NCBI GenBank assembly: GCA_963832225.1
Contig: CAWHTI010000012.1
Location: forward strand, 690,692-754,691
From: an uncultured Actinomycetes bacterium
GTDB taxonomy: Bacteria; Actinomycetota; UBA4738; HRBIN12
DNA length: 64,000 nt
Direction: 5' to 3'
Shown here: piece after piece, positions 13,698 to 40,914 of the stretch
How the letters are laid out: every line of letters starts with the position of its first letter
Position numbering within the stretch: position 1 is the stretch's first letter
Position numbers and translations under genes: made by a program
Notes under the pieces: generated by a model
What the model saw: the letters and a program-made list of their open reading frames with translations, nothing else
Told to the model about the DNA's origin: nothing
The model's database searches: none

Positions 13698-16383
13698 GTG
13701 GTGGGGAACTACCGGGCCTCCGTTCCCCTGACGTACTGTGCTGCGATGCGCGACCTGCCCACCGGCACGGTGACGTTCCTGTTCTCCGACATCGAGGGGT
13801 CGACCCGGATGCTGCAGGGGCTCGGGCGCGACGGCTTCGTGCGCCAGCTGGACCGACACGCCGAGATCCTGCGGACCGCGATCGCCGAGCAGGGGGGTGT
13901 CGAGATCCGTACCGAGGGCGACTCGTTCTTCGTGGCGTTCGCATCGGCGGAGGCCGCGGTGAGAACGGCCGTGGCCGCCCAGCGTGGGCTCGCGGCGCAT
14001 CCGTGGGACGACGGAGCCGCCGTTCGGGTCCGGATCGGGATGCACACGGGCGAGGGCGAGCTGGGCGGCGACGACTACGTCGGCATCGACGTCCACAAGG
14101 CCGCCCGCATCGCCGCCAGCGGCCACGGCGGGCAGGTGGTGCTCTCCGGACGCCACGCGGACGTTGCTGGCGGACCGGCTCCCCGACGGCGTCGCTCTCC
14201 GCGCGTTGGGAGCGCACAAGTTGAAGGACTTCGATCGCGACGAGCCGCTGCACGACCTCGTGATCGAGGGGCTGGAGGCAGGGCTTCCCCCCGCTCTCGA
14301 CGGCGGGCGGACGCCGGACGAACCTGCCGGAGCCGCGGACCTCGTTCGTCGGTCGCGGCTCGGCGATCGCGGAGGTCGGTGCGATGCTCGACGACGCCCG
14401 ACTGGTGACGCTTGACCGGCCCCGGCGGCACCGGCAAGACCCGGCTCGCGCTCGAGGTCGCGGCCGCGCGCCTCGATCGGTACGACGAGGTCACGTTCGT
14501 CGACCTGAGCCCCCTCGACGACGCCTCGCTCGTGATGCCGGCGATAGCCGCCGCGTTGCGCGTGCGCGCGACGCCCGGCGCCGACCCCTCGCAGGCGTTG
14601 TACGAGCGGCTGCGCCGGGCAGACCACCTGCTGGTGCTCGACAACCTGGAGCAGCTCGCGTCCGAGGCCTCGTTCGTCGGCGACCTGCTGGATGCGGCGC
14701 CCCAGCTCACGGTGCTCGCCACCAGCCGCATCGTGCTGCACGTGGCGGGGGAGCGGGAGTACCGGGTAGCCCCGCTCGAGCTCCCCGGCGGCGCGGACGA
14801 GCTCGACGTGTCCGCCGATCGCGTCATCGGAGGCGGTGCGTCTCTTCGCGGAACGCGCCTCCGCGTCGGATCCGGGATTCGAGGTGACCCAGGGGAACGC
14901 GGCGGCCGTCGCCGAGATCGTCGCCCGGCTCGACGGGCTGCCGCTCGCCCTCGAGCTGGCGGCGAGCCGGCTTCGCGTCCTCGATCCTGCGACGCTGGCC
15001 GGCCGCCTCGGGGAGCGGCTCCCGCTGCTGACGGGCGGGCCGCGCGACGCGCCCGAGCGCCAGCGGACCCTCGAGGAGACGATCAGGTGGAGCGAGGAGG
15101 CGCTGCCCGACGATGCTCGACGCCTGTTCGCACGGCTCGCCGTGTTCCCCGGTGGGTGCACGGTCGAGACCGCCGAGGCGGCCTGCGGCGCCGACGTCGA
15201 CGTGCTGGACGGGCTCGGCGTGCTCATGGATCACAGCCTCGTCCGGCGGCTGGACGCGCCGGACGGATCGGTGCGGTTCACGATGCTCGAGACGATCCGC
15301 GAGTACGCCGCCACACGGTTCGCGTCGTTCGACCCCGACGAGCGGTCCTCGATCGAGCGGTTGCAGGCCGAAGGGGTCCGAGACCTCGCCGAGCGCGCGG
15401 AACCGCACATCACGGGGCAGCAGCAGCTCCGCTGGCTGGAGACGCTCGACCTCGAGCTCGAGAACATCCGGGCCGCGCTCGACCGAGCCGAACACGCCAC
15501 GGATCCCGACGAGGTCGCGACGGGGTTGCGTACGGCGGCGGCGCTCTGGCGCTACTGGCAGCGACGCGGCCACTTCGCCGAGGGGCGGGCGAGGCTCGAG
15601 CGACTCCTCTCGCTGCCGGGAGCGCAGGCACGCGACGCCCCCCGAGCTCGGGCGCTCGGCGCGCTCGGCAGCATCGACTACTGGCTCATGAACTACGACG
15701 CGATGAGCGCGTCGTACGAGGAGGCCGCCGACATCGCCCGTGCGCTCGGGGATCGTCGGCTCCTCGCCAGAGCGCTGCTCAACCTGTCGTTCACGCCGGT
15801 CTCCTCGGGACACCCCGAGGAAGCGCAGCGGCTGCTCGAGCAGTGCCTGGAGGTCGTCGAGCCGGACGACCTCTCGATGCAGGCGGAGATCTGGAGCGGC
15901 ATCGGGTTCGGGCGGCTCCTCTCTGGGGACGCGGTCGGGGCGACGGAACCGATCGAGCGGAGCATCTCTCTGTACCGCGAGGTCGCCGAGCAGCTCGCGC
16001 TGTGCGAGGCGTTGCTCGCGCTGACCGGGGTGTACCTGGTGAGCGAGCGCCTGGACGAGGGCCTCCCGTATCTCGCCGAGGCCGCGGCGATCGCGAGCGC
16101 CTCCGGGAACCCGATCCTGCTGGCGACCGTTCTGTTCCCCCACGCCCTGCTCGCGAACATCATGGGGCGCCCGAGCCGGGCCGCGCTTCTGGTCGGCGCG
16201 TCGAACCGGCTCGAACGCGACTACGACGTGCACTTCCCCGAGATCGGCCTCGCGTTCTTCGGGGACCCCGCCGATCAAGCGCGCGCCGCACTCGGCGACG
16301 AGGCGTTCGAGCACGGGCAGGCCAAGGGCGACGCGATGACGCTCGCGCAGATGATCGAGCTCCTCGAGGACGACGCCGAGTAG
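13698..16383 (+). pseudogene. adenylate/guanylate cyclase (class III CHD) - STAND ATPase - TPR regulator, at least 3 frameshifts (about 14148, 14405, 14830)
   Basis: CHD motifs FLFSDIEGST, GDSFFVAFAS, GIDVHKAARIAASGHGGQVVLS; Walker A TGPGGTGKTRLAL; TPR-like region to 16383; protein continuity only recovered by switching among frames of ORFs 13698..14408, 13984..14415, 14412.., 14836..16383. Confidence 0.75.
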
Positions 16384-16475
16384 GTCCCTCGGTCCCGCCA
16401 CGGACCTCGCCGTCGAGCCGGCCCGACCACCACCGGAGCGGTACGCTCGGAGCCACCGGCCGAAGGAATCCGCAC

Positions 16476-19400
16476 GTGTCAGTCCCGGATCCGAACACGA
16501 CGGCGCTCGCGCCGCTGCTCGAGGCCTTCTCCCCGATGGCGCTGCACGTCCGCCGATCCTCGGGCCCGGTCGTCGGTCGCCAGGCCGAGCAGGACGCGAT
16601 CCGTCAGGAGCTGGCGTCGGCCACCGCCGGCCACCTCGCGGGGCTGACGTTCGAGGGCGAGCCCGGCATCGGCAAGACGCGGCTGCTGCTCGCCGCGGCT
16701 GAGATGGCCTCGGCGGCCGGGTTCACGACGATCGCGGTGACCGCCGACGAGGAGCTCCGCGGCCCGTTCCTGCTCGCGCGCTCGGTCCTGGGATCGGCGG
16801 CCTCCGCGCCGGTCGCCCGGGACCGGCCCGAGGTCGGCGAGGCGCTCACCCGGGGCCTCGACGCGATGTCGGGTCAGGACGATCCGGGCCTCGCGACGCT
16901 CCCCGCCGATCGCCGCCTGCTGCGCACGTTCGATCTGGGCGCCGTCGCGTTCCGAGCCGCCGCCGCCGAGGCGCCGCTCGCCGTTCTCATCGACGACCTC
17001 CAGTGGAGCGACGACGACAGCCTGCGTCTGCTCCGCTACGTGGTTCGCTCCATCGCCACGAGCCCGATCTTCCTGCTGTTCGCGATCCGCCCGGAGGAGC
17101 TCGCGCTCGTGACCGAGGCGGTGAACCTGCTCGCCGACATGGAGCGGATGGGCCTCGTCCGGCGCATGAGGGTCGACCGGCTCACGCGGCCCGAGACGCG
17201 GACGCTGATCGCCTCGGTCCTCGGAGGTCCGGTCGACGAGGGCGGCGCGTCGGTCATGCACACGCAGGCCGAGGGCGTCCCGTTCATCGTCGAGGAGATG
17301 GCCCGCGCCTACCGCGACGGCGGGATGGTGCAGCAGATCGACGGCGTGTGGAGGCTCGCCGGCAACACCGAGCGGCTCGTGCCCTCGGCGGTGCGGACGC
17401 TGATCTCGCGGCGCACCGCGCATCTGCCCGACGAGACGAAGGGGCTGCTCGCCGTCGCCGCGGTCCTCGGCCGCCGGTTCAGTCTGGAGGACCTGCGCGA
17501 GGTCGAGGTCCGCGTGGACACCGAGCGGCCCGCTCCGGATCCCGACCTGCTCGCGCGTACCCTCGTCCCGGCCGTGACCGCCGGGCTGCTCGCCGAGCAC
17601 GACGAGGCTGCGGCCGCGGACTACAGCTTCCTGCACGAGCAGGTCCGTGACTTCGCCGCGACGACGCTCACGCCGGCGCGACGTCGTGCGATCCATGCGG
17701 CGATCGTCGAGCTGCTGCTGTCGGGCGAGCCGTCGCCCGCGAGCCTGCCCCTGCTCGCCCACCACGCGAAGGCGGCGGGCAACGCCGCCGTGTGCGTGCG
17801 GTTCTCGGTGGAGGCGAGCCGCAACGCGCTCGCCGCCAACGCTCCCGAGGAGGTCCTGCGCGTCGTCGAGGTGGCGCTCCCGTCTGCAGCCTCCCCCAGG
17901 AGCGGCTCGAGCTGCTGGAGGCGCGCGATCGCGCGTTCGACATGCTCCGGCGGCCGACGGACCGCCTCGAGGGCCTCGCCGAGCTGAGCGCGCTCGCGGA
18001 AGCGCTGGGCAACTCGCACCTGGAGCTCGACGTGCGACTGCGCCGCGCTGCCGCGCTCCGTACGGCCGAGGAGTACGACCGGGCCGTCGAGCTCGCGCGC
18101 GAGGTCCGGCCGCTCGCGAAGGAGCGGGGCGAGGCCGACGTGGAGCTCGCCGCGTGCATGGAACTGGGGCAGGACCTCCTGCGTGCGACCGCGGGCGAGG
18201 CGTTCGTCCCCACGCCTCGCGAGGTGGACCTGGACGCGGCGGAGGAGGCGTTCCGTGCAGCGGTCGAGCTGGCCCGCGAGCTCGGCGACGACGCCACGCT
18301 CGCCACGGCCCTGCGGGAGATCGCGGTCGTGCAGCTCGGCCGGATCCGCGCGTGGTTCGTCGAGCAGTTGGAGATCGGCGCCCATCTCCCGATCGTCCAA
18401 CGGATCGCCGCCGGCGAGGCGCTCGAGGACATCGTGCTCGAGTTGCCGATCGCGCCGATCGTGCAGGAGGCGCACGAGCTGCTGCAGCAGGCGCTCGAGA
18501 TCTTCGAACGGCTCGGCGACCGGCGCGGGGCGATGGCCACGATCATCGCGATGGGCTACCACAGCTGGGCGGCCGACATCCATCTGGGTTCGGGCTCGGC
18601 ACGCCACATCGAGGAGATCCGCCGGCTCACGTCGAAGGCGAAGGCGTTCACGAACGAGAGTGAGCGCGCGGCGTTCGAGGCGCAGATGCTCTTCGGCGTC
18701 CACGTGTTCGCCCGGGCCAAGCTGATCCCCGACCTCGCGATCTCCAGGGGGGAGCAGGCCTGCCACCACGCGCGGGAGATGGGGGATCGCTCGCTGGAGT
18801 TCGCGGCCGCCGGCGGCACGGCGATGGCGTACCTGGACCTGGGCGACGTGGCGCCGGCGGAGCCCTGGATCGAGCGCGCCGCCGCGATCGCGTCGGAGCA
18901 CCCGACGCCGCTGCGGGCGCGCCGTCTGGAGACGTGGCGCGGGATGGTCGCCGCCACTGCGGGGGACGCCGGGGGGATGCGGACGCACCTCGAGCGGGCG
19001 GTGCAGCTCGCGGCCGAGTCGGGCCTGCCCGCGGCGAGGTGCGAGGCGCTGGCCCGCCTGGCGTTGGAGGCGGCCCGGCTGGGCGCCGAGGGAGCCGACG
19101 ACGACCTCCTCGACGCTGCGGAGCGGGCGGCGAACGAGGCGAGGGAACTGGCGGCCGCGATGCCCGGGCATCCGCCGTGGGGTGCGGAGGCAGATGCGGC
19201 ACTGGCCCGGATCGAGCTCGCGCGGGGTCGGGAGGACCGGGCCGCCGGCCACGCCCGCAGCGCGCTGCACGCGATCGAGTCCGCGAGGCACGAGGACGCG
19301 CACCTCGACGTCGCGGTGCCGGTGGCGAACGCGCTCGTCGCGGCCGGGGCGCCGGAGTGGGAGATGCTCCGTCCGTTCCTGCAGCAGACCCTCGCGATGA

Positions 19401-19717
19401 TCGCGCAGCGGACCGTGGACGAGGACGTGCGCGTGCGGTGGTTCCGCGGCCCGATCGGACGCGAGCTGACGCGGCTCGTGGGACCGGTCGACCCGCTGCC
19501 CGCCGCCGACGGCGTCAAGAAGGCGAGCAGGACGGGGGCGCGGACGCGGCGCTGTTGAAGAGCCTGATACAGGGGAAGACGAACGGTGAGATCGCCGAGG
19601 AGCTCGGGATCGACGAACCGTCCGTCGCGACGACGACTCGCGGAGCTGTACACGCACATCGGCGCGTCGTCGCGCGCCGAGGCCACCGCGTTCGCGTTCC
19701 GGGAGCGGGTCCTGTGA
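16476..19717 (+). pseudogene. large ATP-binding LuxR-family regulator (ATPase-TPR-LuxR HTH), about 3 frameshifts (about 17880, 19540, 19630)
   Basis: GTG start with GAAGGA RBS; Walker A GEPGIGKTRLL, Walker B LIDDLQWSDDDS; long TPR region (ORF 17792..19558); LuxR HTH split over two further frames (LLKSLIQGKTNGEIAEELGIDEPSVA ... RLAELYTHIGASSRAEATAFAFRERVL stop at 19717). Confidence 0.75.
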
Positions 19718-19720
19718 GGC

Positions 19721-19756
19721 GCGGGTGGGAGGGGCGCCGCGGGTGGGAGGGGCGCC
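19721..19756. repeat. perfect 18-bp tandem duplication (gcgggtgggaggggcgcc x2) carrying a GGGAGG Shine-Dalgarno, immediately upstream of the ferredoxin-cyclase start codon
   Basis: Read directly: gcgggtgggaggggcgcc gcgggtgggaggggcgcc gaag ATG. Confidence 0.8.
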
Positions 19757-19760
19757 GAAG

Positions 19761-20495
19761 ATGCCGCTGAGGGCCCGCGTCGACCGTCATCGCTGCATCG
19801 GTGCAGGCACGTGTATCACGATCGCTCCCACCGCCTTCGACTGGCACGAGGGGGACTTCGCGAAGGCCGGCGTCATCGACGCGGCGAGCGTCGAGGACGA
19901 GGTGCTCCGCGAGGCGGCGCTCGCCTGCCCGACGGCCGCCATCACGGTGGAGGAGGTCGAGGAACTGTTGCCGTGGCAGCTACGGGGCAGGGAGGCGCCG
20001 CGTCGCGTCGAGAAGACGTTCATGTTCACCGACATCGAGGGGTCGACGAACCTCGTGGAGGCGCTCGGAGACGAGGCGTGGCAGGGCGTGCTGCGGTGGC
20101 ACGACGAGACGCTGCGTCTGCTCTTCGCCGAGCACAAGGGCGAGGAGGTCGTCGCGACCGGCGACGGGTTCTTCGTGGGGTTCGACTCGCCGGATCAGGC
20201 GCTCGCGTGCGCCGTGGCGATCCAGCGCCAGCTCGCGGAGCATCGGCGGACGGCCGGGTTCGCGCCGAAGGTGAGGATCGGTGTGCACGCCTCCGGTGCG
20301 ACGCAGGTGGGGAAGAACTTCTCGGGCAAGGGCGTGCACGAGGCGGCCAGGATCGCGGCGCTCGCCGGTGGCGACCAGATCCTGTCGAGCCGAACGACGG
20401 CCGCCGACGGGAGGTTCCCGATCTCGGAGGCGGAGACCGTCACCCTCCGAGGGACGTCCGAGCCCGTCGAGATCGTCACGGTCGACTGGTCGTAG
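19761..20495 (+). CDS. ferredoxin-domain / class III adenylate cyclase (CHD) fusion protein
   Basis: N-terminal single-cluster ferredoxin motif (RHRCIGAGTCITIAP ... ALACPTAAI), then CHD motifs FMFTDIEGSTNLVE, GDGFFVGFDSPDQA, KVRIGVHASG, GVHEAARIAALAGGDQILSS. Confidence 0.8.
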   Translation: MPLRARVDRHRCIGAGTCITIAPTAFDWHEGDFAKAGVIDAASVEDEVLREAALACPTAAITVEEVEELLPWQLRGREAPRRVEKTFMFTDIEGSTNLVEALGDEAWQGVLRWHDETLRLLFAEHKGEEVVATGDGFFVGFDSPDQALACAVAIQRQLAEHRRTAGFAPKVRIGVHASGATQVGKNFSGKGVHEAARIAALAGGDQILSSRTTAADGRFPISEAETVTLRGTSEPVEIVTVDWS

Positions 20496-20536
20496 CGAAC
20501 CCCGGGCTGGCGTCGGCGGTTCGCAGGTGGTCGTTC

Positions 20537-20917
20537 TCAGGTCGCGGCAGCCGGCAGGGGAGCGAGGACGCAGAACTCGTTCCCCTCGGGATCGACCATC
20601 ACGACCCAGGTGACGTCGTCGGGCTGTCCGATGTTGACGCGACGCGCACCGAGGTCGATGAGGCGCTTGACCTGCGCATCCCGATCGACGGGGCGGAGAT
20701 CGAGATGCAGCCGGTTCTTCACCGTCTTCGCCTCCGGCACCTTCACGAACAGGATGTCCGGCGCGACATCGACGGGCGGGCTGCCCTCCGGCGGCTCGAT
20801 GACCCACTCCTCGGCGCTCTCATGGGTGATGCGCCATCCCAACGCCTCGGACCAGAAGCGGGCGAGCCGTTCGCAGTCGGCGGCATCGATCACGCTGCAC
20901 TGGATACCGATGTCCAC
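20537..20917 (-). CDS. VOC/glyoxalase-family protein
   Basis: Glyoxalase-like beta-alpha-beta-beta-beta motifs (VIDAADCERLARFWSEALGW, NRLHLDLRPVD, WVVMVDPEGNEFCVL); start uncertain (GTG at 20917 chosen; the ORF extends to ATG at 21124). Confidence 0.5.
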   Translation of the reverse strand: MDIGIQCSVIDAADCERLARFWSEALGWRITHESAEEWVIEPPEGSPPVDVAPDILFVKVPEAKTVKNRLHLDLRPVDRDAQVKRLIDLGARRVNIGQPDDVTWVVMVDPEGNEFCVLAPLPAAAT

Positions 20918-22147: not shown

Positions 22148-23485
22148 TCAACGCGTGACCGCGTAGAGCCGCCACGTTCCGGGCGCGCCCTTGAGCTCGT
22201 GCTCGCCCCGATCGAGGAAGTCGACTTCCGAGCCCGCGAGCAGGTCCCTGACGGTGCTCGAGGTCAGCACCTCGCTCGGTGATGCGCTCGCGGCCACCCG
22301 GGCCGCGATGTGCACGGCGAGCCCTCCGAGATCGGCTCCCCGGACCTCGACCTCTCCCGTGTGGACGCCCGCCCGGATCTGGATCCCCAGCGGGGAGACC
22401 GCGAGCACCATCGCGCATGCGCATCGGACGGCCGACACGGGTCGGTCGAACGCCGCGAAGAATCCATCGCCGGTGGTCGAGACCTCTCGGCCCCCGAACC
22501 GGACGAGCTCGGCTCGCATCACCTCGTGGTGCTGATCCAGGACGTCGCGCCAGCGCCGATCGCCCATGTTCGCAGCGAGCTCGGTCGACTGCGCGATGTC
22601 GGTGAACAACAGCGTGGTGAGGAGGCGGTCCGGGTCCGCGCCGGTGCGCGAACCCGTCAGAAACTCCTCGATCTCGTCGACCATCTCGTCGATGCCCTCG
22701 GAGAACGCGAGATGGTCCGTCCCGGACAGTGCGACGAACCGTGCACCGTCGATGGCGGCCGCTGCCTCGCGCGAACGATCGGCGGGCACGATGAGGTTCC
22801 CTGCACGGGTCAACACCAGCGTCGGCGTCCGGATGGAAGGCATCACGTCGGTGAGATCGGCCTCCATCGTCTGCCGATAGAAGTGGCCGTATGCCCCCGG
22901 CCGCACCGAGAACCGTTGGAGACGCGCGAGGTGTCCGTCGAACTGCTCGTCGCCGACACGACTCGGAGCCAGGAACTCGACGCCGCTGTCGTTCGAGACC
23001 GCGCTGGCCTCGATGACGGCGATCACCTCGTCGATCGACTCCATCGGCATCCCGGCCGCGAGCGAATGGGAGGCCGCGAACGTGAAGAGGACGAGCGCTC
23101 GGCACCGCTTGGGCTCCGCCGCGGCGAGCATGGACGCGACGATCGTGCCGTCGTTGAGCCCGATGACCGCGGGACGGTCGGATCCGGCCGCCTCCAGGAC
23201 GGCAACCGCGTCGTCGACCTGGGTCTGGAAGTCGGGGAGCTGGTCGAGGGGCACCGAATCGGAGAGTCCCGTGCCTCGGCGGTCGAAGTGGATCAGCCTG
23301 CCGAGCGAGCTCAGCCGCCGAAGGAACCTGGCGAAGTCGGGGAAGTCCCACACCGCCTCGACGTGGTGGACCCACGTGTCGATCAGGAGGATGTCGAGGT
23401 CGCCCTCACCGACGACCTGGTATGCGAGATGGACGTCGCCGTTCTTCGCGTACCGAGTTCGCGGATGCTCCGCCATCCGTTGCAT
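22148..23485 (-). CDS. alpha/beta-hydrolase-fold / adenylate cyclase (CHD) fusion protein (LipJ-like architecture)
   Basis: N-terminal alpha/beta-hydrolase region (HFDRRGTGLSD, IGLNDGTIVA); C-terminal CHD (LLFTDIAQSTELA, GDGFFAAFDRP, IRAGVHTGEVEV, GLAVHIAARVAASASPSEVLTS); intact 446 aa. Confidence 0.8.
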   Translation of the reverse strand: MQRMAEHPRTRYAKNGDVHLAYQVVGEGDLDILLIDTWVHHVEAVWDFPDFARFLRRLSSLGRLIHFDRRGTGLSDSVPLDQLPDFQTQVDDAVAVLEAAGSDRPAVIGLNDGTIVASMLAAAEPKRCRALVLFTFAASHSLAAGMPMESIDEVIAVIEASAVSNDSGVEFLAPSRVGDEQFDGHLARLQRFSVRPGAYGHFYRQTMEADLTDVMPSIRTPTLVLTRAGNLIVPADRSREAAAAIDGARFVALSGTDHLAFSEGIDEMVDEIEEFLTGSRTGADPDRLLTTLLFTDIAQSTELAANMGDRRWRDVLDQHHEVMRAELVRFGGREVSTTGDGFFAAFDRPVSAVRCACAMVLAVSPLGIQIRAGVHTGEVEVRGADLGGLAVHIAARVAASASPSEVLTSSTVRDLLAGSEVDFLDRGEHELKGAPGTWRLYAVTR

Positions 23486-23567
23486 CCTAGTGTGGCCGAT
23501 CCGGCTCGAAGTTCGGTCCAGTAGGCTTGCCGTGAGGGCGGCGCATGATGGATCGAGGGCGGTGTGC

Positions 23568-24893
23568 ATGACGCTCCTGGACTCGACCCCCAGGACGTTC
23601 GGTGAGTACGTGGCGACGGGTGGGGGTCGCGGACTCGAGATCGCGCTGCGGGCCGCGCCCGACGCGGTGATCGATGAGATCGCTCGAAGCGGTCTCCGAG
23701 GGCGCGGCGGAGCCGGCTTCCCCACGGGTGAGAAGTGGCGCTCGATCCGAACGACCGGCACCGGTACGAGGTTCGCGGTCTGCAACGGCGCCGAAGGAGA
23801 ACCTGCCACCTACAAGGACCGGACGCTGCTGCGCACGAACCCCTATCAGGTCCTGGAGGGCCTCGCGATCGCCGGCTACGCGGTCGGTGCCGAGCGGTGC
23901 TACGTCGGCATCAAGGAGGCGTTCACCGAGGAGCTCGAAGTGACGCGACGCGCGCTCGAGGAGATGGATGCCGCCGACGCGCTCGGAGGGATCCCGTTCG
24001 AGGTGGTTCCGGGCCCGGACCTGTACCTGTTCGGTGAGGAGACGGGGCTGGAGGAGGTCATCGAGGAACGATTGCCCCTGCCGCGCCTGGCCCGACCGTT
24101 CATGCTCGGATTGTTCGCAACACCGCCGAACGACAATCCGACGCTCATCAACAACGTCGAGACCCTGGCGAACGTGCCGCACATCGTGGCGGACGGCCCC
24201 GATTGGCTTCGCGCGAGTGGCACGGACACCTCCCCCGGCCACATGGTGTTCACCGTCTGCGGCGACGTTCAACGCGAGGGCGTATTCGAGATGGCGCTCG
24301 GGACGACCATTCGCGACCTGCTCGAGGGCCAGGCGGGCGGGCCGGCGGATGGGAGATCGATCAAGGCCGTCTTCCCAGGCGCCTCGAACACGGTGCTCGT
24401 TCCCGAGCAGTTCGATACGCCGTTGGACTTCGACTCGATGCGGCAGGTCGGATCGGGGCTGGGAGCTGGCGGCTTCGCGGTCTTCGATGACACGGCCTGC
24501 CTGGTGCGTGCTGCATACCTGTATTCGCGGTTCCTTTCAGTGGAGTCCTGCGGCCAGTGCCCGGCGTGCAAGTTCGGCACGAGCGAGGTCACGCGAGTGC
24601 TGCGCACGATCGAGAGCGGGCAGGGATCGGACCAGGATCTCGAGTTCATCCTGGCACGGGCGAGAGCCTCGACCGACGGGCAGAAGTGTGCGCTGCCCAC
24701 CGGCGAGAGCCTGCTGATCCAGAGCTTGATTCAGGTGTTTCCAGAAGAGTTCGGCGCCCACCTCAACTCCTCGTGCACATCGTCCCGGGATCTCCCCTTC
24801 CACAAGATCGTCGGGTGGGACGCCGGCGGAGCGCGGTTCATATACGACTCCACGTATGCACGAAAGCAGCCGGACTGGACCTCTTCGGTCTGA
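23568..24893 (+). CDS. NuoF-like NADH-binding FMN / 4Fe-4S flavoprotein (NADH dehydrogenase 51-kDa subunit family), stand-alone
   Basis: FMN/NADH site GLRGRGGAGFPTGEKW, GAEGEPATYKDR; C-terminal 4Fe-4S motif ESCGQCPACKFGT; no other nuo genes nearby. Confidence 0.8.
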   Translation: MTLLDSTPRTFGEYVATGGGRGLEIALRAAPDAVIDEIARSGLRGRGGAGFPTGEKWRSIRTTGTGTRFAVCNGAEGEPATYKDRTLLRTNPYQVLEGLAIAGYAVGAERCYVGIKEAFTEELEVTRRALEEMDAADALGGIPFEVVPGPDLYLFGEETGLEEVIEERLPLPRLARPFMLGLFATPPNDNPTLINNVETLANVPHIVADGPDWLRASGTDTSPGHMVFTVCGDVQREGVFEMALGTTIRDLLEGQAGGPADGRSIKAVFPGASNTVLVPEQFDTPLDFDSMRQVGSGLGAGGFAVFDDTACLVRAAYLYSRFLSVESCGQCPACKFGTSEVTRVLRTIESGQGSDQDLEFILARARASTDGQKCALPTGESLLIQSLIQVFPEEFGAHLNSSCTSSRDLPFHKIVGWDAGGARFIYDSTYARKQPDWTSSV

Positions 24894-24965: not shown

Positions 24966-27900
24966 ATGAGGACCTGCGCCTCCTGCGGCACCGAGAACCC
25001 TGACGGGGCGAAGTTCTGCAACGAGTGCGCCACGCCTCTCGGAGCGCCCGCCCGCCCGGTCGCAGAGGAACGCAAGGTCATCACCGCGCTGTTCTGTGAC
25101 CTGATCGGGTTCACCGCCACCTCGGAGTCCGCGGATCCCGAGGACATCGACAAGATGCTCTCCGCCTACGCGACGATGGCCCGCAGCACAGATCGAGGCT
25201 CACGGCGGGGTCGTGGAGAAGTTCATCGGCGACGCGGTGGTTGGGGTCTTCGGGGTGCCGGCCGCCCACGAGGACGACCCCGAGCGCGCCGTGCGCGCCG
25301 GTCTTCGGATCGCCGAAGAGGCCGGAGGAGCTTGAAGGCCGTGGGCGGAGCACCGCTCCGTCTGCGCGTCGGGATCAACACCGGCGAGGTCTTGGTGCGT
25401 CTGGGGATCACGCCGGGCTCGGGCGAAGGCTTTCTCGCGGGCGATGCGATCAACACCGCGTCGCGGCTCCAGTCGGTGGCTCCGGAGATGGGAGTCGCGG
25501 TCGGGCTCGCGACCTACGAGGCGACAGCTGTGGTCTTCGACTACTCGGAGCTCGAACCAGCGACCCTCAAGGGCAAGTCCGAGCCGGTCCGTGTCTTCCA
25601 CGCGACGGCCGCACGGTCGCGTCTCGGCACCGATCTCACCCGGACACACGACACCCCGTTCATCGGCCGGGAGATCGACCTCGCGTTGCTCAAGGGGATC
25701 TTCGACAAGGCCGTCGCCGCCGACACGGTCCAGCTCGTCACGGTCGTCGGCGAGCCCGGAATCGGCAAGAGCCGGATCGTCGCCGAGCTCGGCTCGCTAC
25801 ATCGACACCCGATCCGACCTCGTCACCTGGCGTCAGGGACGATGCCTGCCCTACGGGGAGGGCATCACGTTCTGGGCGCTGGGGGAGATCGTGAAGGCCC
25901 ACGCGGGGATCTTGGAGTCCGACCCGCCCGACGCTGCCAGAGCGAAGCTCGACGTGGTCCTTCCGCAGGGCCCGGAGCGTGGGTGGTTCCGGCAGCGCCT
26001 GCTGCCGCTGCTGGGGATCGAGGCCGCTTCGTCGGCCGAGCGGGAGGAGCTGTTCACCGCGTGGCGGCGGTTCCTGGAGCAGATCGCCGAGGACGATCCG
26101 ACCGTGCTCGTGTTCGAGGACCTGCACTGGGCCGACGACGCGATGCTCGCCTTCCTGGAGCACCTGGGCGGTCGCGCCGAGGGTGTGCCGCTGCTCGTGG
26201 TCGGCACCGCCCGCCCCGAGCTGTTCGAGCGCCATCCCGACTTCGCGTGCGGGGCTGCGGAACGCGACGCCCGATCAACCTGTCGCCGCTCTCGTCCGCA
26301 GGAGACCGCCCGTCTGGTGTCGGCCCTGCTCGAGAGCAGCGTGATCCCCGCCGAGTTGCAGCAGCCGATCCTCGACCGCGCCGGCGGGAACCCGCTCTAC
26401 GCCGAGGAGTTCGTCCGGCTGCTGAAGGACCGGGAACTGCTCGTCCGGAAGGGCTCGAGCTGGGAGCTCGGGCAGGGGCCGAGGTGCCCTTCCCCGACTC
26501 GGTGCAGGCGCTGATCGCCGCTCGACTGGACACGCTGGCACCCGACGCGAAGTCGATGCTCGCCGACGCCGCGGTCATGGGCAAGGTGTTCTGGGCGGGC
26601 GCCGTCGCCGCGATGGGCGAGCGTGACCCCGCCGAGGTGACCGAGGCGCTGCGTGAGCTCTCGCGCAAGGAGCTCGTGCGCCCGGCCCGGCGATCGTCGA
26701 TCGAAGGCGAGGCGGAGTACGCGTTCTGGCACGTCCTCACCCGCGACGTCGCGTACGCGCAGCTGCCCCGAGCCTCACGGGCCTCGCGCCACGTCGCCGC
26801 CGCAACGTGGATCGAGTCCAAGGCCGCCGAGCGTGCGGAGGACCTCGCCGACGTGCTCGCCTACCACTACGCCACGGCGCTGGAGCTCGCGCGCGCAGCC
26901 GGGCAGGCCGACCAGGCCGCCGAGCTGGAGGGGCCCGCGCTCCGGTTCCTCACCCTGGCCGGCGACCGCGCCCTCGGCCTCGACACGGCCGCGGCTCTGG
27001 AGCATTCGAGCGGGCGCTCGCCCTCACGCCGCCGGGGCACCCCGAACGCCCGGGCGCGCTCGCTCGCTTCGGCGAGGCCGCTTTCCAGGCCGGCCGCGCG
27101 GTCGAGGCGGCGGAGGCCCTGGAGGAGGCGATCGCGTCCTTCCGGGCGCGAGGCGATCTCGCCGCCGCCGCCAACGCCATGGCCACGCTCGGCAACGCGT
27201 ACTTCGACGGCGGGGATCCGCGGTGGGCGGGGTTGCCCGCGGAGGCGTCGGCGCTCCTGGAGCCGCTGCCGCCCGGCCCCGAGCTCGTCGGGGCGCTCAC
27301 CGAGCTCGCCAGGGTGGAGACCCTCCAGGGGAGGCACGAGGCGGGCGCACGGTACGCCGAGCGGGCGCTCGCGCTCGCCGAGGAGCTCGGGCTCGGGCGG
27401 CCCGCGCGCACCCTCGGCTATCGCGGTCTGGCCCGCGCCGGACTCGGAGATCCCGCGGGCCTCGAGGACATGCGTGAGGCGATCGCGCTCGCGACCCAGG
27501 CCGGAGAGGGCCGCGAGGTGGCCTTGCTCCACAACAACCTCGGGGAGATGCTCTGGATCTTGAAAGGCCCCGAAGCCTCGCTGGAGGTCCTGCGCTCGGG
27601 GACCGCCTTCGCACGGGCTCGGGGGCTCGCCGAGATGAGCGACGCCATCACGACGAGCACGATCGATCCGCTCATCGATCGCGGCGAGCTGGATGAAGCG
27701 CTCGCCGCCGCCGCCTCCGTCGCCGAACGCCTCGAGTCGAGCGACGTCGTGTGGGATCTCGTCGGGGTTCGCGCCGCGCAGGCTCGGATCCAGGCCCTGC
27801 GCGGCCAGGCCGCGAAGGTGGCCGGCTCACTCGATTGGCTCGAGTCGACCGCTCGCGGAGCCGGGGACGCGCAACTCGTCGTCCTCGGCCTGGGGCCGGC

Positions 27901-28390
27901 AGCCCTCGTACGCGCCGGGCTCGGACAAGGCGATGCTGCGGCCGAGCTGCTGACGGAGATCGACGCGACCCTCGGCGCTCGCAAGACCGTGTACTACCCG
28001 GTCATCCTGCCCACGCTGGTGCGCACCGCACTGCGGATCGACCACCCGGATCTCGCCGAGCGTCTCGCGGCTGGTCTCGATCACCCGTTCCCCTACGCCG
28101 AGCACGCGCTCGCCGCGGCGAGCGCGGCGCTCGACGAGGCTCGCGGGGACCTGCCGGCCGCCGCCGTTGCCTACGCCGATGCCGCCGGGAGCTGGGAGCG
28201 GTTCGGGGTCGTCCCCGAGCATGCGTTCGCGCTCCTCGGACAGGGCCGGTGCCTGGTCGGGCTGTCCCGTCCGACCGAGGCCTCCTCGACCCTGCAGCAC
28301 GCTCACGAGATCTTCGAACGGCTCCAGGCGGTCCCCGCGCTCGGCGAGACCGACGAGCTTCTGCAGCAGGCCGCCGTAGCTCGGTCGTAG
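24966..28390 (+). pseudogene. zinc-ribbon - adenylate cyclase (CHD) - STAND ATPase - TPR regulator, about 5 frameshifts (about 25185, 25330, 25800, 26480, 27004)
   Basis: N-terminal Zn-ribbon CASCGTENPDGAKFCNEC; CHD motifs ALFCDLIGFT, FIGDAVVGVFG, VGINTGEVLV, GDAINTASRLQS; Walker A GEPGIGKSRIV, Walker B LVFEDLHWADDA; TPR region to 28390; continuity needs three reading frames. Confidence 0.75.
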
Positions 28391-29653: not shown

Positions 29654-29732
29654 CGGTCGATGCTCGCACCGGCCACCGACACGCTCGGCGTCTCGAGTGG
29701 AGGATGGGGTGGCGCGACGGTGACCGCCTAGC

Positions 29733-31898
29733 ATGGAGCTCGATCCCGCGGCGTCGGCGATCATGCGAGGATCGGCGGAGGGAGTCCGAGCCATGGAACA
29801 GCCAGCGACAGCTTCCCGCCGCGAGGGCGTCATCGACGTCTCCGACCGGCACGGACGCTTCCGGCGCCCGACCGGAGCGCCGCCGCCACTACCCAAGAAG
29901 ATCGGCGCCACCGGTGTCGCCCGACTGGCCGTGGTCGTGCTCGTCGTCATCCCGGCCTGCATCTGGCTGCACTACGATCCTGTGCCGTTGGACCGGTTCG
30001 ATGCCGCGATCACCCGTGCGGTGGTCTCACTGCGTGTTGGGTGGCTCGACACGCTGGCCCGATCCGTCAATGCCGCCGCCTCGCGGTACGGGCTCGCGCT
30101 CCTCAGCGTGCTGACGGTGGTGGCCGTTGCCGCGTTCCGTCGGTGGCGGCACCTCACCCTCTTCTTCATCGGCGTGGCGCTCGTGGGACTCTCAGCGGAA
30201 GTGCTGTTGCTACTCGCGGCGCGGCCGCGCCCGTTCGATGTGACGATCATCGGGGCGTGGGAGGGCTTCTCGGCCCCCTCGATCCCCATGACGGGTCTCG
30301 CGGTCGTGGTCGTCGGCATCGCGTACATGCTCGTGATCCCTGGCCGCCCCCGGATGGTCGCCAAGTGCATCGGTCCGGTCGTGCTGATCCTGGCCGCCCT
30401 CCTCCGCGTGTACCTCGGGATCGACCACTTCACCGACGCGATGTTCGGGGTGATCCTCGGCGTCTCGATCCCGGTCGCCCTCTTCCGCGCGTACGCGCCG
30501 AACGACATCTACCCGGTGCGATACGGCCCACAGGGCAAGGCGGCCCACCTCGACGTGTCCGGCGCGCGTGGCGAGGCGATCAGGGTCGCCATGAAGGAGC
30601 AGCTCGGCTACGAGGTCCTGACCATGAAGCCGGTCGGGCTCGAGGGCTCGGGCGGCTCCACGCCCCTGAAGATGCGGGTCGTCGACGATCAGGGCGTCGA
30701 GCGGTCGGTCTTCGCGAAGCTGTACGCGAAGAGCCATGTGCGGGCGGACCGCTGGTACAAGCTCGGGCGCACGATGCTCTACGGCCGCCTCGAGGACGAG
30801 ACCCCCTTCAGCACGGTCCGCCGCTTCGTGGAGTACGAGGACTACACCCTGCGACTCCTCGGCGAGAAGGGCTTCTCGACGCCCGAGCCGCTCGACATCG
30901 TCGAGATCACGCCCGAGCGCGAGTACCTGATCGCGATGGAGTTCTTCGAGGACGCGGTCGAGATCAGCGAGGTCGAGGTCGACGAGCAGATCATCGACGA
31001 CGGATTGCAGCTGATCCGCCGGATGTGGGACGTCGGGCTGTCCCACCGCGATATCAAGCCGGCGAACCTGATGGTGCAGGACGGGAGGCTGCGCCTGATC
31101 GACGTGTTCTTCGTGCAGGTACGTCCATCGCCGTGGCGCCAGGCGGTCGACCTCGGCAACATGATGCTGGTGCTCGCCCTGCGCTCGAACCCGGAGGTCG
31201 TCTACGAGCGGGCCCTCGCCAATTTCACACCCGAGGAGCTGTCCGAGGCGTTCGCCGCGACCCGGGGCGTGGCCAGCCCCACGCAGCTGCGGACATCGTT
31301 GAAGGCGGACGGACGCGGCCTGCTGGAGACGTTCCGGGAGCTCGCACCGTCCCGTAAGCCCATCGGGATCCAGCGGTGGAGTGTCCGCCGCGTGGTGTTG
31401 ATCCTCTGTACGACGCTGTTGCTGTGCCTGGCCGTGCTGACGGGCATCGCGCTGTTCATCCCCTCGCGCGGCGACGTGTGGAACGCCACGTGCGGCACGG
31501 GCCGCACGATGCAGCTGATGGCGCAGGCGGTCCCGACGGCGGCGAAGCTGCCGTGCATCGGCGACCTCCCGCTCGGTTGGGGCACGGAGCAGGCGACGGT
31601 TGCCCGAGGCAGGGCGACCTTCACCGTGGGGATCGGGTCGGACCTGGTGAGCCCGGTCACCGTGACGTTGGTGGAGACCTGTCCGCCGGACAGCGCGCTC
31701 CAGTCGATCCCGATCGAGGGTGGATGTGTCACCTACCAGGTGCCGCCAGTGACCGAGGCCGGGTCGGTGCCGTCGTTCGACCACGGGGGAGGCCTCGCGT
31801 TCATCGACCGGGATGTGCTCGTCGCCGCAGTCGAGCAGGACGAGGATCTCGTGCTCTGCGGCGCGCACGCTCCGTGCGCCCCGGCACCCGCACGATGA
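29733..31898 (+). CDS. PAP2-like membrane phosphatase domain fused to protein-kinase-like domain, C-terminal TM and Cys-containing extracytoplasmic domain
   Basis: 6 TM N-terminus with PAP2-like motif 3 (RVYLGIDHFTD) but degenerate motif 2 (PSIP instead of PSGH); kinase-like Gly loop GLEGSGGS, VFAKLY lysine, catalytic loop HRDIKPANLM, IDVFF; TM (VVLILCTTLLLCLAVLTGIALF) then domain with 6 Cys; 721 aa intact; true start may be ATG at 29793. Confidence 0.7.
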   Translation: MELDPAASAIMRGSAEGVRAMEQPATASRREGVIDVSDRHGRFRRPTGAPPPLPKKIGATGVARLAVVVLVVIPACIWLHYDPVPLDRFDAAITRAVVSLRVGWLDTLARSVNAAASRYGLALLSVLTVVAVAAFRRWRHLTLFFIGVALVGLSAEVLLLLAARPRPFDVTIIGAWEGFSAPSIPMTGLAVVVVGIAYMLVIPGRPRMVAKCIGPVVLILAALLRVYLGIDHFTDAMFGVILGVSIPVALFRAYAPNDIYPVRYGPQGKAAHLDVSGARGEAIRVAMKEQLGYEVLTMKPVGLEGSGGSTPLKMRVVDDQGVERSVFAKLYAKSHVRADRWYKLGRTMLYGRLEDETPFSTVRRFVEYEDYTLRLLGEKGFSTPEPLDIVEITPEREYLIAMEFFEDAVEISEVEVDEQIIDDGLQLIRRMWDVGLSHRDIKPANLMVQDGRLRLIDVFFVQVRPSPWRQAVDLGNMMLVLALRSNPEVVYERALANFTPEELSEAFAATRGVASPTQLRTSLKADGRGLLETFRELAPSRKPIGIQRWSVRRVVLILCTTLLLCLAVLTGIALFIPSRGDVWNATCGTGRTMQLMAQAVPTAAKLPCIGDLPLGWGTEQATVARGRATFTVGIGSDLVSPVTVTLVETCPPDSALQSIPIEGGCVTYQVPPVTEAGSVPSFDHGGGLAFIDRDVLVAAVEQDEDLVLCGAHAPCAPAPAR

Positions 31899-35609: not shown

Positions 35610-36851
35610 ATGTTTCGGATGCGACATGCGACTCGGATGACCGGGGAGAACACGTACCAACCAGGAGGTCTGGCGAGCACCGCTGTTGCCGCGACGACCG
35701 CGTTGCTGGCGGCGGGCCTGCTCCTGTGGCCGGCGGATGCAGCTCGAGCCGCGACACCCACGTGCTCCGGTCGGGCCGCGACCATCGTGGGCACCTCCGG
35801 AGACGACAACCCTCTGCCCGGGACGTCCGGGGACGACGTCATCGTCGGACGGGGAGGAGACGACGTGATCCGAGGAGGCGGTGGCAACGACCTCATCTGT
35901 GGCAAGGGCGGCGCGGACACGCTCAGCGGCGACGCTGGGGACGATGACCTCCTCGGGGGGGTCGGTGAGGACGTTGCGGACTATTCACAGTCGTATTTCC
36001 CATCGACGGCCGACGGGGTGAACGTCAACCTCGGCACGGGGCAGGCGACGGGCGAGGGAACCGACCAGCTGACCGGCATCGAGGGCGTGAACGGCTCCGA
36101 CTACGGCAGCGACATCCTCACCGCGAGCGACGCGGGCTCGACGTTGGACGGAGGCTTCGAGGCCGACACCCTCATCGGCGGCGCGTCGGCAGACGTCCTC
36201 CGTTCGGGTGCGACCGACGCCGAGCCCGATACGGTGGAGGGAAGGGGTGGCGACGACACGCTCGATCTCGGCGACCAGGATGTGCTCTCGTATGCCCACG
36301 CTCCGAGTGCCGTCCACGTCGATCTCGGTCTGTCGACGGTGAGCGGCGGCGACGGCGCCGACGTCCTCATGGGTTCGCCCCACTACGTCATCGGATCCAG
36401 GTACGGCGACGACATCTTCGGCGACGAGAACGGAAACATCCTCGTCGGCGGTCCCGGACGCGACACGATGGACGGCGAAGGCTATTACGACACGCTCTAC
36501 CCGGGCCGCGGCGACGATACGCTTGACGGTGGTCCTGGATCGGACACCGTGGTCTACGGCGACGGGACGGCGACGGCGGGCGTGACGGTCGATCTCAAGC
36601 TCGACTCAGTGCTCGGTGGTTCAGGCAACGACATCGTGAGCAGTATCGACGCCGTCGTCGGCACGGAGTTCGACGATGTCATCAAGGGCGGCGGCCATTC
36701 CAACTTCCTGTCCGGACTCGCGGGTGATGACAGGTTGAGGGGCCGGAGAGGGACTGACTTCCTGAACGGCGGTGAGGGGAACGACCGGGTGATCGGCGGA
36801 AACGGATTCGATAGTTGCGAGGGCGAGTTCACCCTCTCTTGCGAATCCTGA
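35610..36851 (+). CDS. secreted calcium-binding protein with hemolysin-type (RTX) GGxGxD repeats
   Basis: Signal peptide; more than 12 nonapeptide repeats (GTSGDDVIVG, GRGGDDVIRG, GGGNDLICG, GKGGADTLSG, GGPGSDTVVYG ...); 413 aa. Confidence 0.7.
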   Translation: MFRMRHATRMTGENTYQPGGLASTAVAATTALLAAGLLLWPADAARAATPTCSGRAATIVGTSGDDNPLPGTSGDDVIVGRGGDDVIRGGGGNDLICGKGGADTLSGDAGDDDLLGGVGEDVADYSQSYFPSTADGVNVNLGTGQATGEGTDQLTGIEGVNGSDYGSDILTASDAGSTLDGGFEADTLIGGASADVLRSGATDAEPDTVEGRGGDDTLDLGDQDVLSYAHAPSAVHVDLGLSTVSGGDGADVLMGSPHYVIGSRYGDDIFGDENGNILVGGPGRDTMDGEGYYDTLYPGRGDDTLDGGPGSDTVVYGDGTATAGVTVDLKLDSVLGGSGNDIVSSIDAVVGTEFDDVIKGGGHSNFLSGLAGDDRLRGRRGTDFLNGGEGNDRVIGGNGFDSCEGEFTLSCES

Positions 36852-36924
36852 GTCGCCTGCCGACGGTGACCCCGAATGTCAGACGATGGGCGGCCGCAGG
36901 GGTCGTTCGGATGGTGAGCGCTTC

Positions 36925-40746: not shown

Positions 40747-40914
40747 GCCAGGCTCCCTTCTCGGTGCGCCCTCGGCGCCGGTGAGCCACGGATGATATTC
40801 CCGCGACTCCAGATGCGCGAGTCGGGTGGGGTCGAGGCACGCCGAGCGGTGGTCCCGCCGGAGCACCGGGTCGGAGGTGCTCGTCTCTTCCACCGATCAG
40901 CACGGGATGGATCC

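Follow-up and report, generated by a model that had tools for sequence, protein, structure and literature searches.

A ferredoxin domain joined to a class III cyclase domain, and its conserved neighbour, a STAND-LuxR regulator gene, in uncultured soil Actinomycetota

We analyzed a 64,000-nt stretch of the genome of an uncultured Actinomycetes bacterium (GenBank assembly GCA_963832225.1, contig CAWHTI010000012.1, positions 690,692 to 754,691 of the forward strand), hereafter the window, whose numbering is used throughout. It encodes a small protein, here called Fd-CHD, in which a ferredoxin domain is followed directly by a class III cyclase homology domain (CHD). Comparison of related loci identifies as its predicted conserved partner the gene immediately upstream, encoding an AAA_16-TPR-LuxR regulator, which the first-pass annotation of this DNA, made from the sequence without database searches, had overlooked. 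We propose, with a probability of roughly 55%, that Fd-CHD is a soluble sensor-cyclase under the control of the redox or cluster state of an iron-sulfur (Fe-S) cluster, and that it works with the regulator encoded in the same operon.

The open reading frame (ORF) of Fd-CHD has an ATG start with GGGAGGGG 5' of it and a TAG stop. It is intact in the window, unlike that of the regulator gene, and gives a protein of 244 aa, one residue shorter than the 245 aa first reported for it. The protein begins 6 residues before the ferredoxin domain and consists entirely of this domain (Fer4_13, residues 7–63), a linker (residues 64–85) and the CHD (residues 86–231). In a Pfam scan both domains scored above the curated cut-offs, which bears out the earlier proposal that they are joined in one protein. 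To place the protein among its relatives, we scanned one genome per species of GTDB. This yielded 88 relatives, from which 80 loci were taken for the analysis of gene neighbourhoods and 69 full-length sequences for the analysis of conservation. In 54 of the 69 species-level genomes the ORF has exactly 244 aa and runs uninterrupted through both domains, and the same ORF of approximately 244 aa recurs in the 80 loci and, across several sequencing sources, in at least 120 independent protein clusters. These counts leave practically no probability for a gene-calling or assembly artefact, in which an indel would have joined two separate genes, although frame changes are numerous in the window and in related metagenome-assembled genomes (MAGs) built from long reads, and several database proteins of the form GerE-Fd-CHD are visibly frameshifted. 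The fusion is genuine and conserved, and the artefact reading is rejected.

The N-terminal domain matches the complete Fer4_13 profile (positions 1–58 of 58; 38.9 bits against a cut-off of 24.5) and also Fer4_15 (31.5 bits against 22.4). The first 65 residues align with single-cluster ferredoxins over the full length of the latter, best with those of Thermotoga maritima (1rof/1vjw, E 3e-7) and Pyrococcus furiosus (2z8q/1siz), and more weakly with Desulfovibrio gigas FdII and the Mycobacterium tuberculosis 3Fe-4S ferredoxins 8amp and 8amq. In the alignment to 1rof and 2z8q, Cys12 and Cys18 correspond to the first and third Cys of the CxxCxxC motif and Cys56-Pro57 to the distal CP, and Ala15 is found at the second-ligand position, which is a Cys in T. 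maritima and an Asp in P. furiosus. The signature is C-x2-A-x2-C...C-P, with three Cys (C12-I-G-A15-G-T-C18 ... C56-P57). The C-x5-C ... C-P pattern that had been read as a ferredoxin signature is therefore in register with the cluster-ligand positions of solved single-cluster ferredoxins. A check of Cys conservation had been suggested earlier; the three Cys are invariant, and residues C12, A15, C18, P23, C56 and P57 are unchanged in 69/69 species-level homologues. Neither variable Cys nor a fold other than an Fe-S fold was encountered.

Based on this alignment, a cubane Fe-S cluster should sit on Cys12, Cys18 and Cys56. The motif CXXA/GXXC(X)nCP is characteristic of [3Fe-4S] ferredoxins (PMC6237146), and with Ala15 in place of a fourth ligand, [3Fe-4S] is the most likely cluster type. 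Full-length homology with the CxxXxxC...CP pattern in register is shared with T. maritima 1vjw, P. furiosus 2z8q, D. gigas FdII (1f2g) and M. tuberculosis Fdx/FdxE (8amp/8amq), and the Ala at the variable position is shared with the classical [3Fe-4S] ferredoxins (PMC6237146). Whereas these single-cluster ferredoxins are free-standing electron carriers or fused to a P450, the ferredoxin of Fd-CHD is fused to a signalling enzyme.

The linker between the two domains is strongly conserved. Residues L69, L70, P71, W72, Q73, L74, R75, G76, P80, R81, R82 and V83 are identical across 29 homologues, and the linker (LLPWQLRG...PRRV.KTF) is also highly conserved among the 69 species-level sequences, on par with the cluster ligands. 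A short, Pro-containing and invariant linker suggests that the ferredoxin domain packs directly against the CHD, rather than acting on it through a coiled-coil transducer.

The C-terminal part of Fd-CHD matches Guanylate_cyc (PF00211) with 32.8 bits against a cut-off of 21.9. The closest solved CHDs are those of two active mycobacterial enzymes, Mycobacterium avium Ma1120/Rv1120c (4wp3, E 5e-23) and M. tuberculosis Rv1900c/LipJ (1ybt, E 2e-18). Residue equivalences were taken from sequence alignment, with the functional residues of Ma1120, K101, D157, A164 and R168 (PMC4215837), used as a ruler. D91 and D135 align with the two canonical metal-binding Asp residues of Ma1120 and Rv1900c, and R197 with the canonical Arg of the transition state (R168 in Ma1120, Arg in Rv1900c). 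At the first substrate position, canonically Lys, Fd-CHD has V131 (K101 in Ma1120, Asn in Rv1900c); at the second, canonically Asp, it has N186 (D157 in Ma1120, Asp in Rv1900c); and at the other transition-state position, canonically Asn, it has H193 (A164 in Ma1120, His in Rv1900c). In this alignment the canonical adenine-specifying Lys-Asp pair, which Ma1120 keeps, is not present in Fd-CHD and is replaced by V131/N186. The description of the CHD as intact thus holds for D91, D135 and R197, but not for the canonical Lys, Asp and Asn.

Among the species-level homologues, D91 and R197 are found in 69/69, D135 in 68/69, H193 in 66/69 and V131 in 58/69, and position 186 is Asn in 46/69 and Asp in 21/69. 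The metal-binding Asp pair, the catalytic Arg and the phosphate-binding motif FTDIxxST are near-invariant across the 69 species and 150 distant relatives. Fd-CHD shares with Rv1900c and Ma1120 the FTDIxxST and GDGF metal motifs, the ..V-H/A-x-A-A-R.. motif and a non-canonical residue at the Asn position; the three differ in the N-terminal partner of the CHD, which is an alpha/beta-hydrolase domain in Rv1900c, absent in Ma1120 and a ferredoxin in Fd-CHD. Ma1120, with Ala at the Asn position, is an active cyclase, and changing this Ala to Asn destroys the activity (PMC4215837). As Ma1120 deviates too, yet is active, the deviations at V131, N186 and H193 are no argument for a dead enzyme. Since the Lys-Asp pair is replaced by V131/N186, the name "adenylate" cyclase is an assumption; the product is probably cAMP. 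A PADLOC scan for anti-phage systems returned for Fd-CHD only weak PycC matches (E 1e-4, 19.7 bits), attributable to the shared CHD fold, and for the regulator none.

The gene upstream of Fd-CHD encodes a regulator with an intact Walker A motif (GEPGIGKT) in a STAND-type AAA_16 ATPase domain, a long TPR/helical region and, at its C-terminus, a GerE helix-turn-helix (HTH) of the LuxR type. It has a GTG start at 16476. A tblastn search of the window with the intact orthologue of locus L002 recovered the regulator in two segments, 16485–17900 in frame 3 and 17897–19714 in frame 2; in L002 and L005 the regulator ORFs are intact, with 1076/1087 aa, and carry the AAA_16 and GerE domains. Where 3.3 kb or more of DNA is available 5' of Fd-CHD, the full regulator lies upstream on the same strand in 67/68 loci, the exception (L080) being a CHD-only match, and the C-terminus of the regulator abuts Fd-CHD in 76/78 loci. 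In the homologues the distance from the regulator stop to the Fd-CHD start is −10 to +21 nt, with frequent overlaps of the TGATG type. This is a signature of translational coupling, and we therefore regard the two genes as a predicted translationally coupled two-gene operon with Fd-CHD in second position. The window and related genomes are syntenic at the nucleotide level over exactly 16438–20495, and the synteny ends on both sides of this block, even with the closest relative (L077, 86% identity). No other conserved neighbour of this cassette was found in the 80 loci; the best cluster occurs in 20/80, on mixed sides and strands, and belongs to a multi-copy family.

The cassette seems to carry its own promoter, as a −10-like hexamer is enriched upstream of the regulator. 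TA[AC][CGT]CT, in most cases TACCCT and often with a G before it, occurs within 160 nt 5' of the regulator N-terminus in 41/66 loci (these include L002–L074), compared to 1.9% of background windows of 160 nt. Scans of 16200–20800 for consensus sigma-70 promoters and terminators gave nothing useful. In the window, the spacer between the two genes contains a perfect tandem duplication (period 18, 2.1 copies, 100% match; two exact copies against 0.06 expected), which widens the spacer to 43 nt, doubles GGGAGGGG and is not present in any homologue. The reading frame of the regulator shifts near 17894, 19540 and 19633 through 1-nt indels relative to the homologues, one of them beside a C run. Repeated frame changes were also observed over long genes of the window in general (13.6–16.4 kb, 16476–19717 and 24.97–28.4 kb), and the closest MAG (L077, long-read) has indels of its own. 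Errors of long-read assembly are a more probable cause of the frame changes in the window than decay.

Relatives in which the two parts are fused provide a further view of the cassette. Two close relatives of the CHD, P0133 (1158 aa) and P0191 (1220 aa), are single AAA_16-TPR-GerE-CHD polypeptides, whose domain order is the gene order of the cassette, with neither the stop codon nor the ferredoxin. P0133 matches the cassette regulator over its first 430 residues and its HTH (E 4e-17). When the nearest cyclases were clustered at 50% identity, the 97 nearest representatives carried TPR_12 (26), AAA_16 (11), GerE (8), BTAD (7) and protoglobin (1) as partner domains, and this CHD subfamily is, by its predicted domains, habitually wired to transcription-factor modules. 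The protoglobin of the single relative is a haem sensor, and the seven BTAD relatives are of the BTAD/Trans_reg_C type. Fer4_13 is found in only 9/97 of these representatives, several of them fragments, so that the fusion forms a small clade. The best NCBIfam match of the regulator is to the model "TOMM kinase/cyclase fusion protein", in its STAND part. Mycobacterial Rv0386 and its relatives have the same set of modules in the arrangement CHD-AAA-TPR-LuxR (PMC3466318). A class III CHD, a STAND-type ATPase, TPR and a LuxR HTH are common to the cassette, to proteins of the Rv0386/Rv1358/Rv2488c type and to P0133/P0191. Compared to the Rv0386 type, the cassette consists of two coupled genes instead of one polypeptide, has the CHD last instead of N-terminal, and has a ferredoxin added before the CHD; none of the fused AAA-TPR-LuxR/CHD forms examined contains a ferredoxin.

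Class III cyclases borrow many sensor domains, and redox control of such enzymes by Fe-S or haem cofactors is already known in other forms. Cyclases with a 6TM (dihaem cytochrome b)-ferredoxin-CHD architecture, where 6TM denotes six transmembrane segments, occur in alpha- and beta-proteobacteria, and CyaC of Sinorhizobium meliloti has been characterized (PMC4821796, PMC10463352). The activity of CyaC follows the redox state of quinones (PMC4821796, PMC10463352), and redox-regulated CyaC forms a complex with the transcription factor CycR, whose gene is adjacent to its own (PMC10463352). Like Fd-CHD, this group combines a class III cyclase with a redox cofactor and has the ferredoxin module directly N-terminal to the CHD. 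Its members are membrane-bound class IIIb enzymes with a haem-binding 6TM anchor, whereas Fd-CHD is a predicted soluble protein of 244 aa without an anchor. CyaC is said, in work by Wissig et al. from 2019, to contain a binuclear cluster; Fd-CHD differs in its 3-Cys cubane-type motif, in its CHD subfamily and in having a STAND-LuxR regulator rather than a TetR one. The view of the first-pass annotation that this architecture is not a characterized family agrees with our search of the literature, in which neither a characterization of a soluble Fer4-CHD protein nor any published description of a soluble Fer4_13-CHD protein was found. Fd-CHD is thus a class III cyclase of the modular kind, set apart by a new input domain and by a distinctive partner that is conserved in its operon. 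We infer a functional link between Fd-CHD and the regulator because of the fused relatives (Rosetta-stone evidence), the conserved operon and the precedent of CyaC.

The species-level relatives of Fd-CHD are almost all from MAGs of uncultured soil Actinomycetota, with a few labelled Chloroflexota/Limnocylindria (61–74% identity). In a collection of metagenome proteins there are at least 120 clusters of Fd-CHD of approximately 244 aa at 85–93% identity, some with more than 200 members; automatic database labels of the members are "class 3 adenylate cyclase", "ferredoxin" and "4Fe-4S domain-containing protein". Within the set of loci L010, L066, L070, L071 and L074, the Chloroflexota/Limnocylindria members (61–74% identity) carry the regulator upstream; the cassette is also found in MAGs labelled Planctomycetaceae (85% identity), which is probably a binning or label error. 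The Planctomycetaceae and Chloroflexota occurrences suggest horizontal transfer or a wider vertical distribution. Several candidate sequences were discarded. P0121, P0123, P0124, P0141 and P0171 were rejected as natural GerE-Fd-CHD or Fd-CHD-Pyr_redox fusions on account of obvious frameshifted stretches, and P0166 was rejected as a family member; it aligns over the ferredoxin region but lacks the motif Cys and has no Fer4 match.

The first-pass annotation had instead paired Fd-CHD with a NuoF-like flavoprotein encoded downstream, as a module transducing redox state to cAMP. The NuoF-like gene is real and stand-alone as had been stated, with the three expected domains and no nuo-type neighbour among the ORFs scanned around it. 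The protein scores below the NuoF equivalog cut-off (TIGR01959, 328 against 558.65 bits), and its gene lies between those of a LipJ-like cyclase and a Zn-ribbon-CHD-AAA protein. An exact-sequence look-up of the Fd-CHD and NuoF-like proteins returned no matching record. Homologues of the NuoF-like protein (46–79% identity) occur widely in soil metagenomes, where their contexts vary and include neither NuoE nor NuoG. Three genes separate it from Fd-CHD, encoding a glyoxalase-like protein (−), a hypothetical protein (+) and a LipJ-like alpha/beta-hydrolase-cyclase (−), the last of which is transcribed divergently from the NuoF-like gene.

A check of co-occurrence, proposed with the module, showed that genomic linkage is absent both ways in 80 loci each. 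No NuoF-like gene was found within 10 kb of Fd-CHD (0/80 loci; 55 loci have more than 5 kb of downstream DNA), and no Fd-CHD near the NuoF-like homologues (0/80 metagenomic loci). The NuoF-like homologues have no conserved neighbour, the best cluster being present in 7/80 loci. An apparent "alpha/beta-hydrolase-CHD" beside the NuoF-like gene in 52 loci was dismissed as an artefact of an over-extended ORF (22148–23809) running antisense over that gene. It is very improbable that the NuoF-like flavoprotein passes electrons from NADH to the ferredoxin domain in an NADH-to-cAMP module, of which the cAMP product was itself an assumption: the two genes do lie within 3 kb of each other in the window, the flavoprotein does have FMN/NADH and 4Fe-4S domains, and redox cycling of the cluster would need some reductant, but both reciprocal surveys are negative, two of the three intervening genes are on the opposite strand, and synteny stops at 20495. 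Their proximity is unremarkable because there are five cyclase genes in approximately 25 kb (Table 1). Comparative evidence does not support a link, and we regard the NuoF-like flavoprotein, on the sequence evidence, as an unrelated neighbour.

How an Fe-S cluster might act on the cyclase can be outlined from what is known of the enzyme class. Class III cyclases are dimers with active sites at the interface, and in mycobacterial Rv1264 and Rv1900c the N-terminal domains exert their control by moving the two catalytic domains into new positions. In Fd-CHD the ferredoxin domain would hold the cubane cluster, most likely [3Fe-4S], on C12, C18 and C56. The redox state, presence or integrity of this cluster could shift the ferredoxin domain and the linker against the cyclase dimer, and the shifted arrangement would switch cyclic-nucleotide synthesis on or off. 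Candidate input signals are cellular reducing power, O2, nitric oxide and iron. The regulator may be coupled through locally made nucleotide or through direct contact with Fd-CHD, resulting in a transcriptional response to the redox or Fe-S signal.

Several points weigh against this proposal, in which cluster binding, cyclase activity and redox regulation are all predictions from sequence. The purine-specifying Lys is Val131, so that activity may be low. The [3Fe-4S] ferredoxins of this type can be oxygen-stable (PMC6237146), and because they can withstand oxygen, sensing by destruction of the cluster is not a given. In the regulator no domain for binding cyclic nucleotides is recognisable, AAA_16 and GerE being the only ones that passed E 0.001, and its gene in the window carries frame changes, which may be assembly errors or real decay. 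An AlphaFold2 model of Fd-CHD has a mean predicted local distance difference test (pLDDT) score of 52, with 22–37 for the ferredoxin domain, and is of too low quality to reveal a ferredoxin-cyclase interface; its input was an alignment of 29 sequences, all at least 85% identical, which is too shallow, and the model was discarded.

The main rival explanation draws on some of these same points. It holds that the CHD is a non-catalytic pseudo-cyclase and that Fd-CHD acts as a redox-sensitive anti- or co-activator which binds the STAND-LuxR regulator without a second messenger. The substitution of the canonical Lys, Asp and Asn (V131, N186, H193), the habitual joining of this CHD subfamily to STAND/TPR and HTH modules, and a regulator lacking a known domain for binding cyclic nucleotides all fit such a role. 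We consider it unlikely: near-invariance of the metal-binding Asp residues, the catalytic Arg and FTDIxxST among the 69 species and the 150 distant relatives is unexpected in a dead enzyme, Ma1120 is active with Ala at the Asn position (PMC4215837), and the VH..AR motif is common to Rv1900c. Less probable still is that the ferredoxin serves as an ordinary carrier of electrons, to a P450 or another oxidoreductase for instance, or is a purely structural Fe-S module, with the cyclase answering to another input. The domain does resemble electron-transfer ferredoxins most, among them the mycobacterial 3Fe-4S ferredoxins 8amp and 8amq, which are associated with P450s, and proteins of this [3Fe-4S] type are as a rule stable carriers (PMC6237146). 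However, the neighbours of the cassette include no conserved P450, ferredoxin reductase or other oxidoreductase, the Pyr_redox_2 "fusion" P0121 is an isolated case, and the linker to the CHD is as strictly conserved as the ligands, which argues for intramolecular signalling. The preferred reading remains a sensor-cyclase that responds to its own Fe-S cluster. A bolder form of it, to which we give rather low odds, makes the cassette a self-contained redox-to-transcription switch, in which the cluster would gate the synthesis of a cyclic nucleotide and the STAND-LuxR regulator would be the dedicated receptor of this nucleotide or of Fd-CHD; given Val and Asn at the specificity positions, the nucleotide would possibly not be cAMP.

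The features of the cassette and of the rest of the window are listed in Table 1. Searching the window for Rfam families and tRNAs gave no hits.

Table 1. Features of the window discussed in the text, with position, strand and basis or remarks.
Feature	Position	Strand	Basis or remarks
Fd-CHD gene, 244 aa and stop	19761..20495	+	ORF listing, Pfam, homologues
Ferredoxin domain, residues 7–63, with Cys12, Ala15, Cys18, Cys56, Pro57	19779..19949	+	Fer4_13/Fer4_15, alignment to 1rof and 2z8q
Conserved linker, residues 64–85, EEVEELLPWQLRGREAPRRVEK	19950..20015	+	Homologue alignment
Class III cyclase homology domain, residues 86–231	20016..20453	+	Guanylate_cyc, alignments to Ma1120 and Rv1900c
AAA_16 (STAND-type ATPase)-TPR/helical-GerE (LuxR HTH) regulator, ~1,080 aa	16476..19717	+	tblastn with intact L002 orthologue
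Likely −10 promoter element GGTACGCT, ~30 nt 5' of regulator GTG	16440..16447	+	Enriched hexamer; putative promoter role
Perfect 18-bp tandem duplication (CGGGTGGGAGGGGCGCCG x2) holding Shine-Dalgarno-like GGGAGGGG, spacer between regulator and Fd-CHD	19720..19757	+	Tandem Repeats Finder
NuoF-like flavoprotein	23568-24893	+	Complex1_51K 132 bits, SLBB 29 bits, NADH_4Fe-4S 62.5 bits
CHD-AAA-TPR gene (CHD match)	13773-14153	+	
LipJ-like alpha/beta-hydrolase-CHD gene	22148-23480	−	CHD at 22253-22627
Zn-ribbon-CHD-AAA_16-TPR gene	24966-28390	+	CHD at ~25.3-25.6 kb
Second LipJ-like alpha/beta-hydrolase-CHD gene	36793-38289	+	CHD at 37810-38172
Further TPR-GerE regulator	~9.5-12 kb		
FAD_binding_4/BBE-type oxidase	39376-40896	−	No link to the Fd-CHD finding seen
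Large PAP2-domain protein	29724-31895	+	No link to the Fd-CHD finding seen

The analysis corrects a tempting guilt-by-proximity link to NuoF and draws attention to a soluble cubane Fe-S ferredoxin as the putative input of a cyclase, which is uncharacterized in the literature searched. Fd-CHD is abundant in uncultured soil Actinomycetota, with at least 88 species-level genomes, and is present in some Chloroflexota as well. With 244 aa, it would be a small and tractable system for studying how an Fe-S cluster controls a cyclase, and it may tell what purpose the association of cyclases with AAA-TPR-LuxR modules serves, as in M. tuberculosis Rv0386, Rv1358 and Rv2488c. If the cassette does prove to be a self-contained switch, STAND ATPase-TPR regulators would form a new class of effectors of cyclic nucleotides or of cyclases, and it would become possible to test what the mycobacterial CHD-AAA-TPR-LuxR proteins, long an enigma, do.

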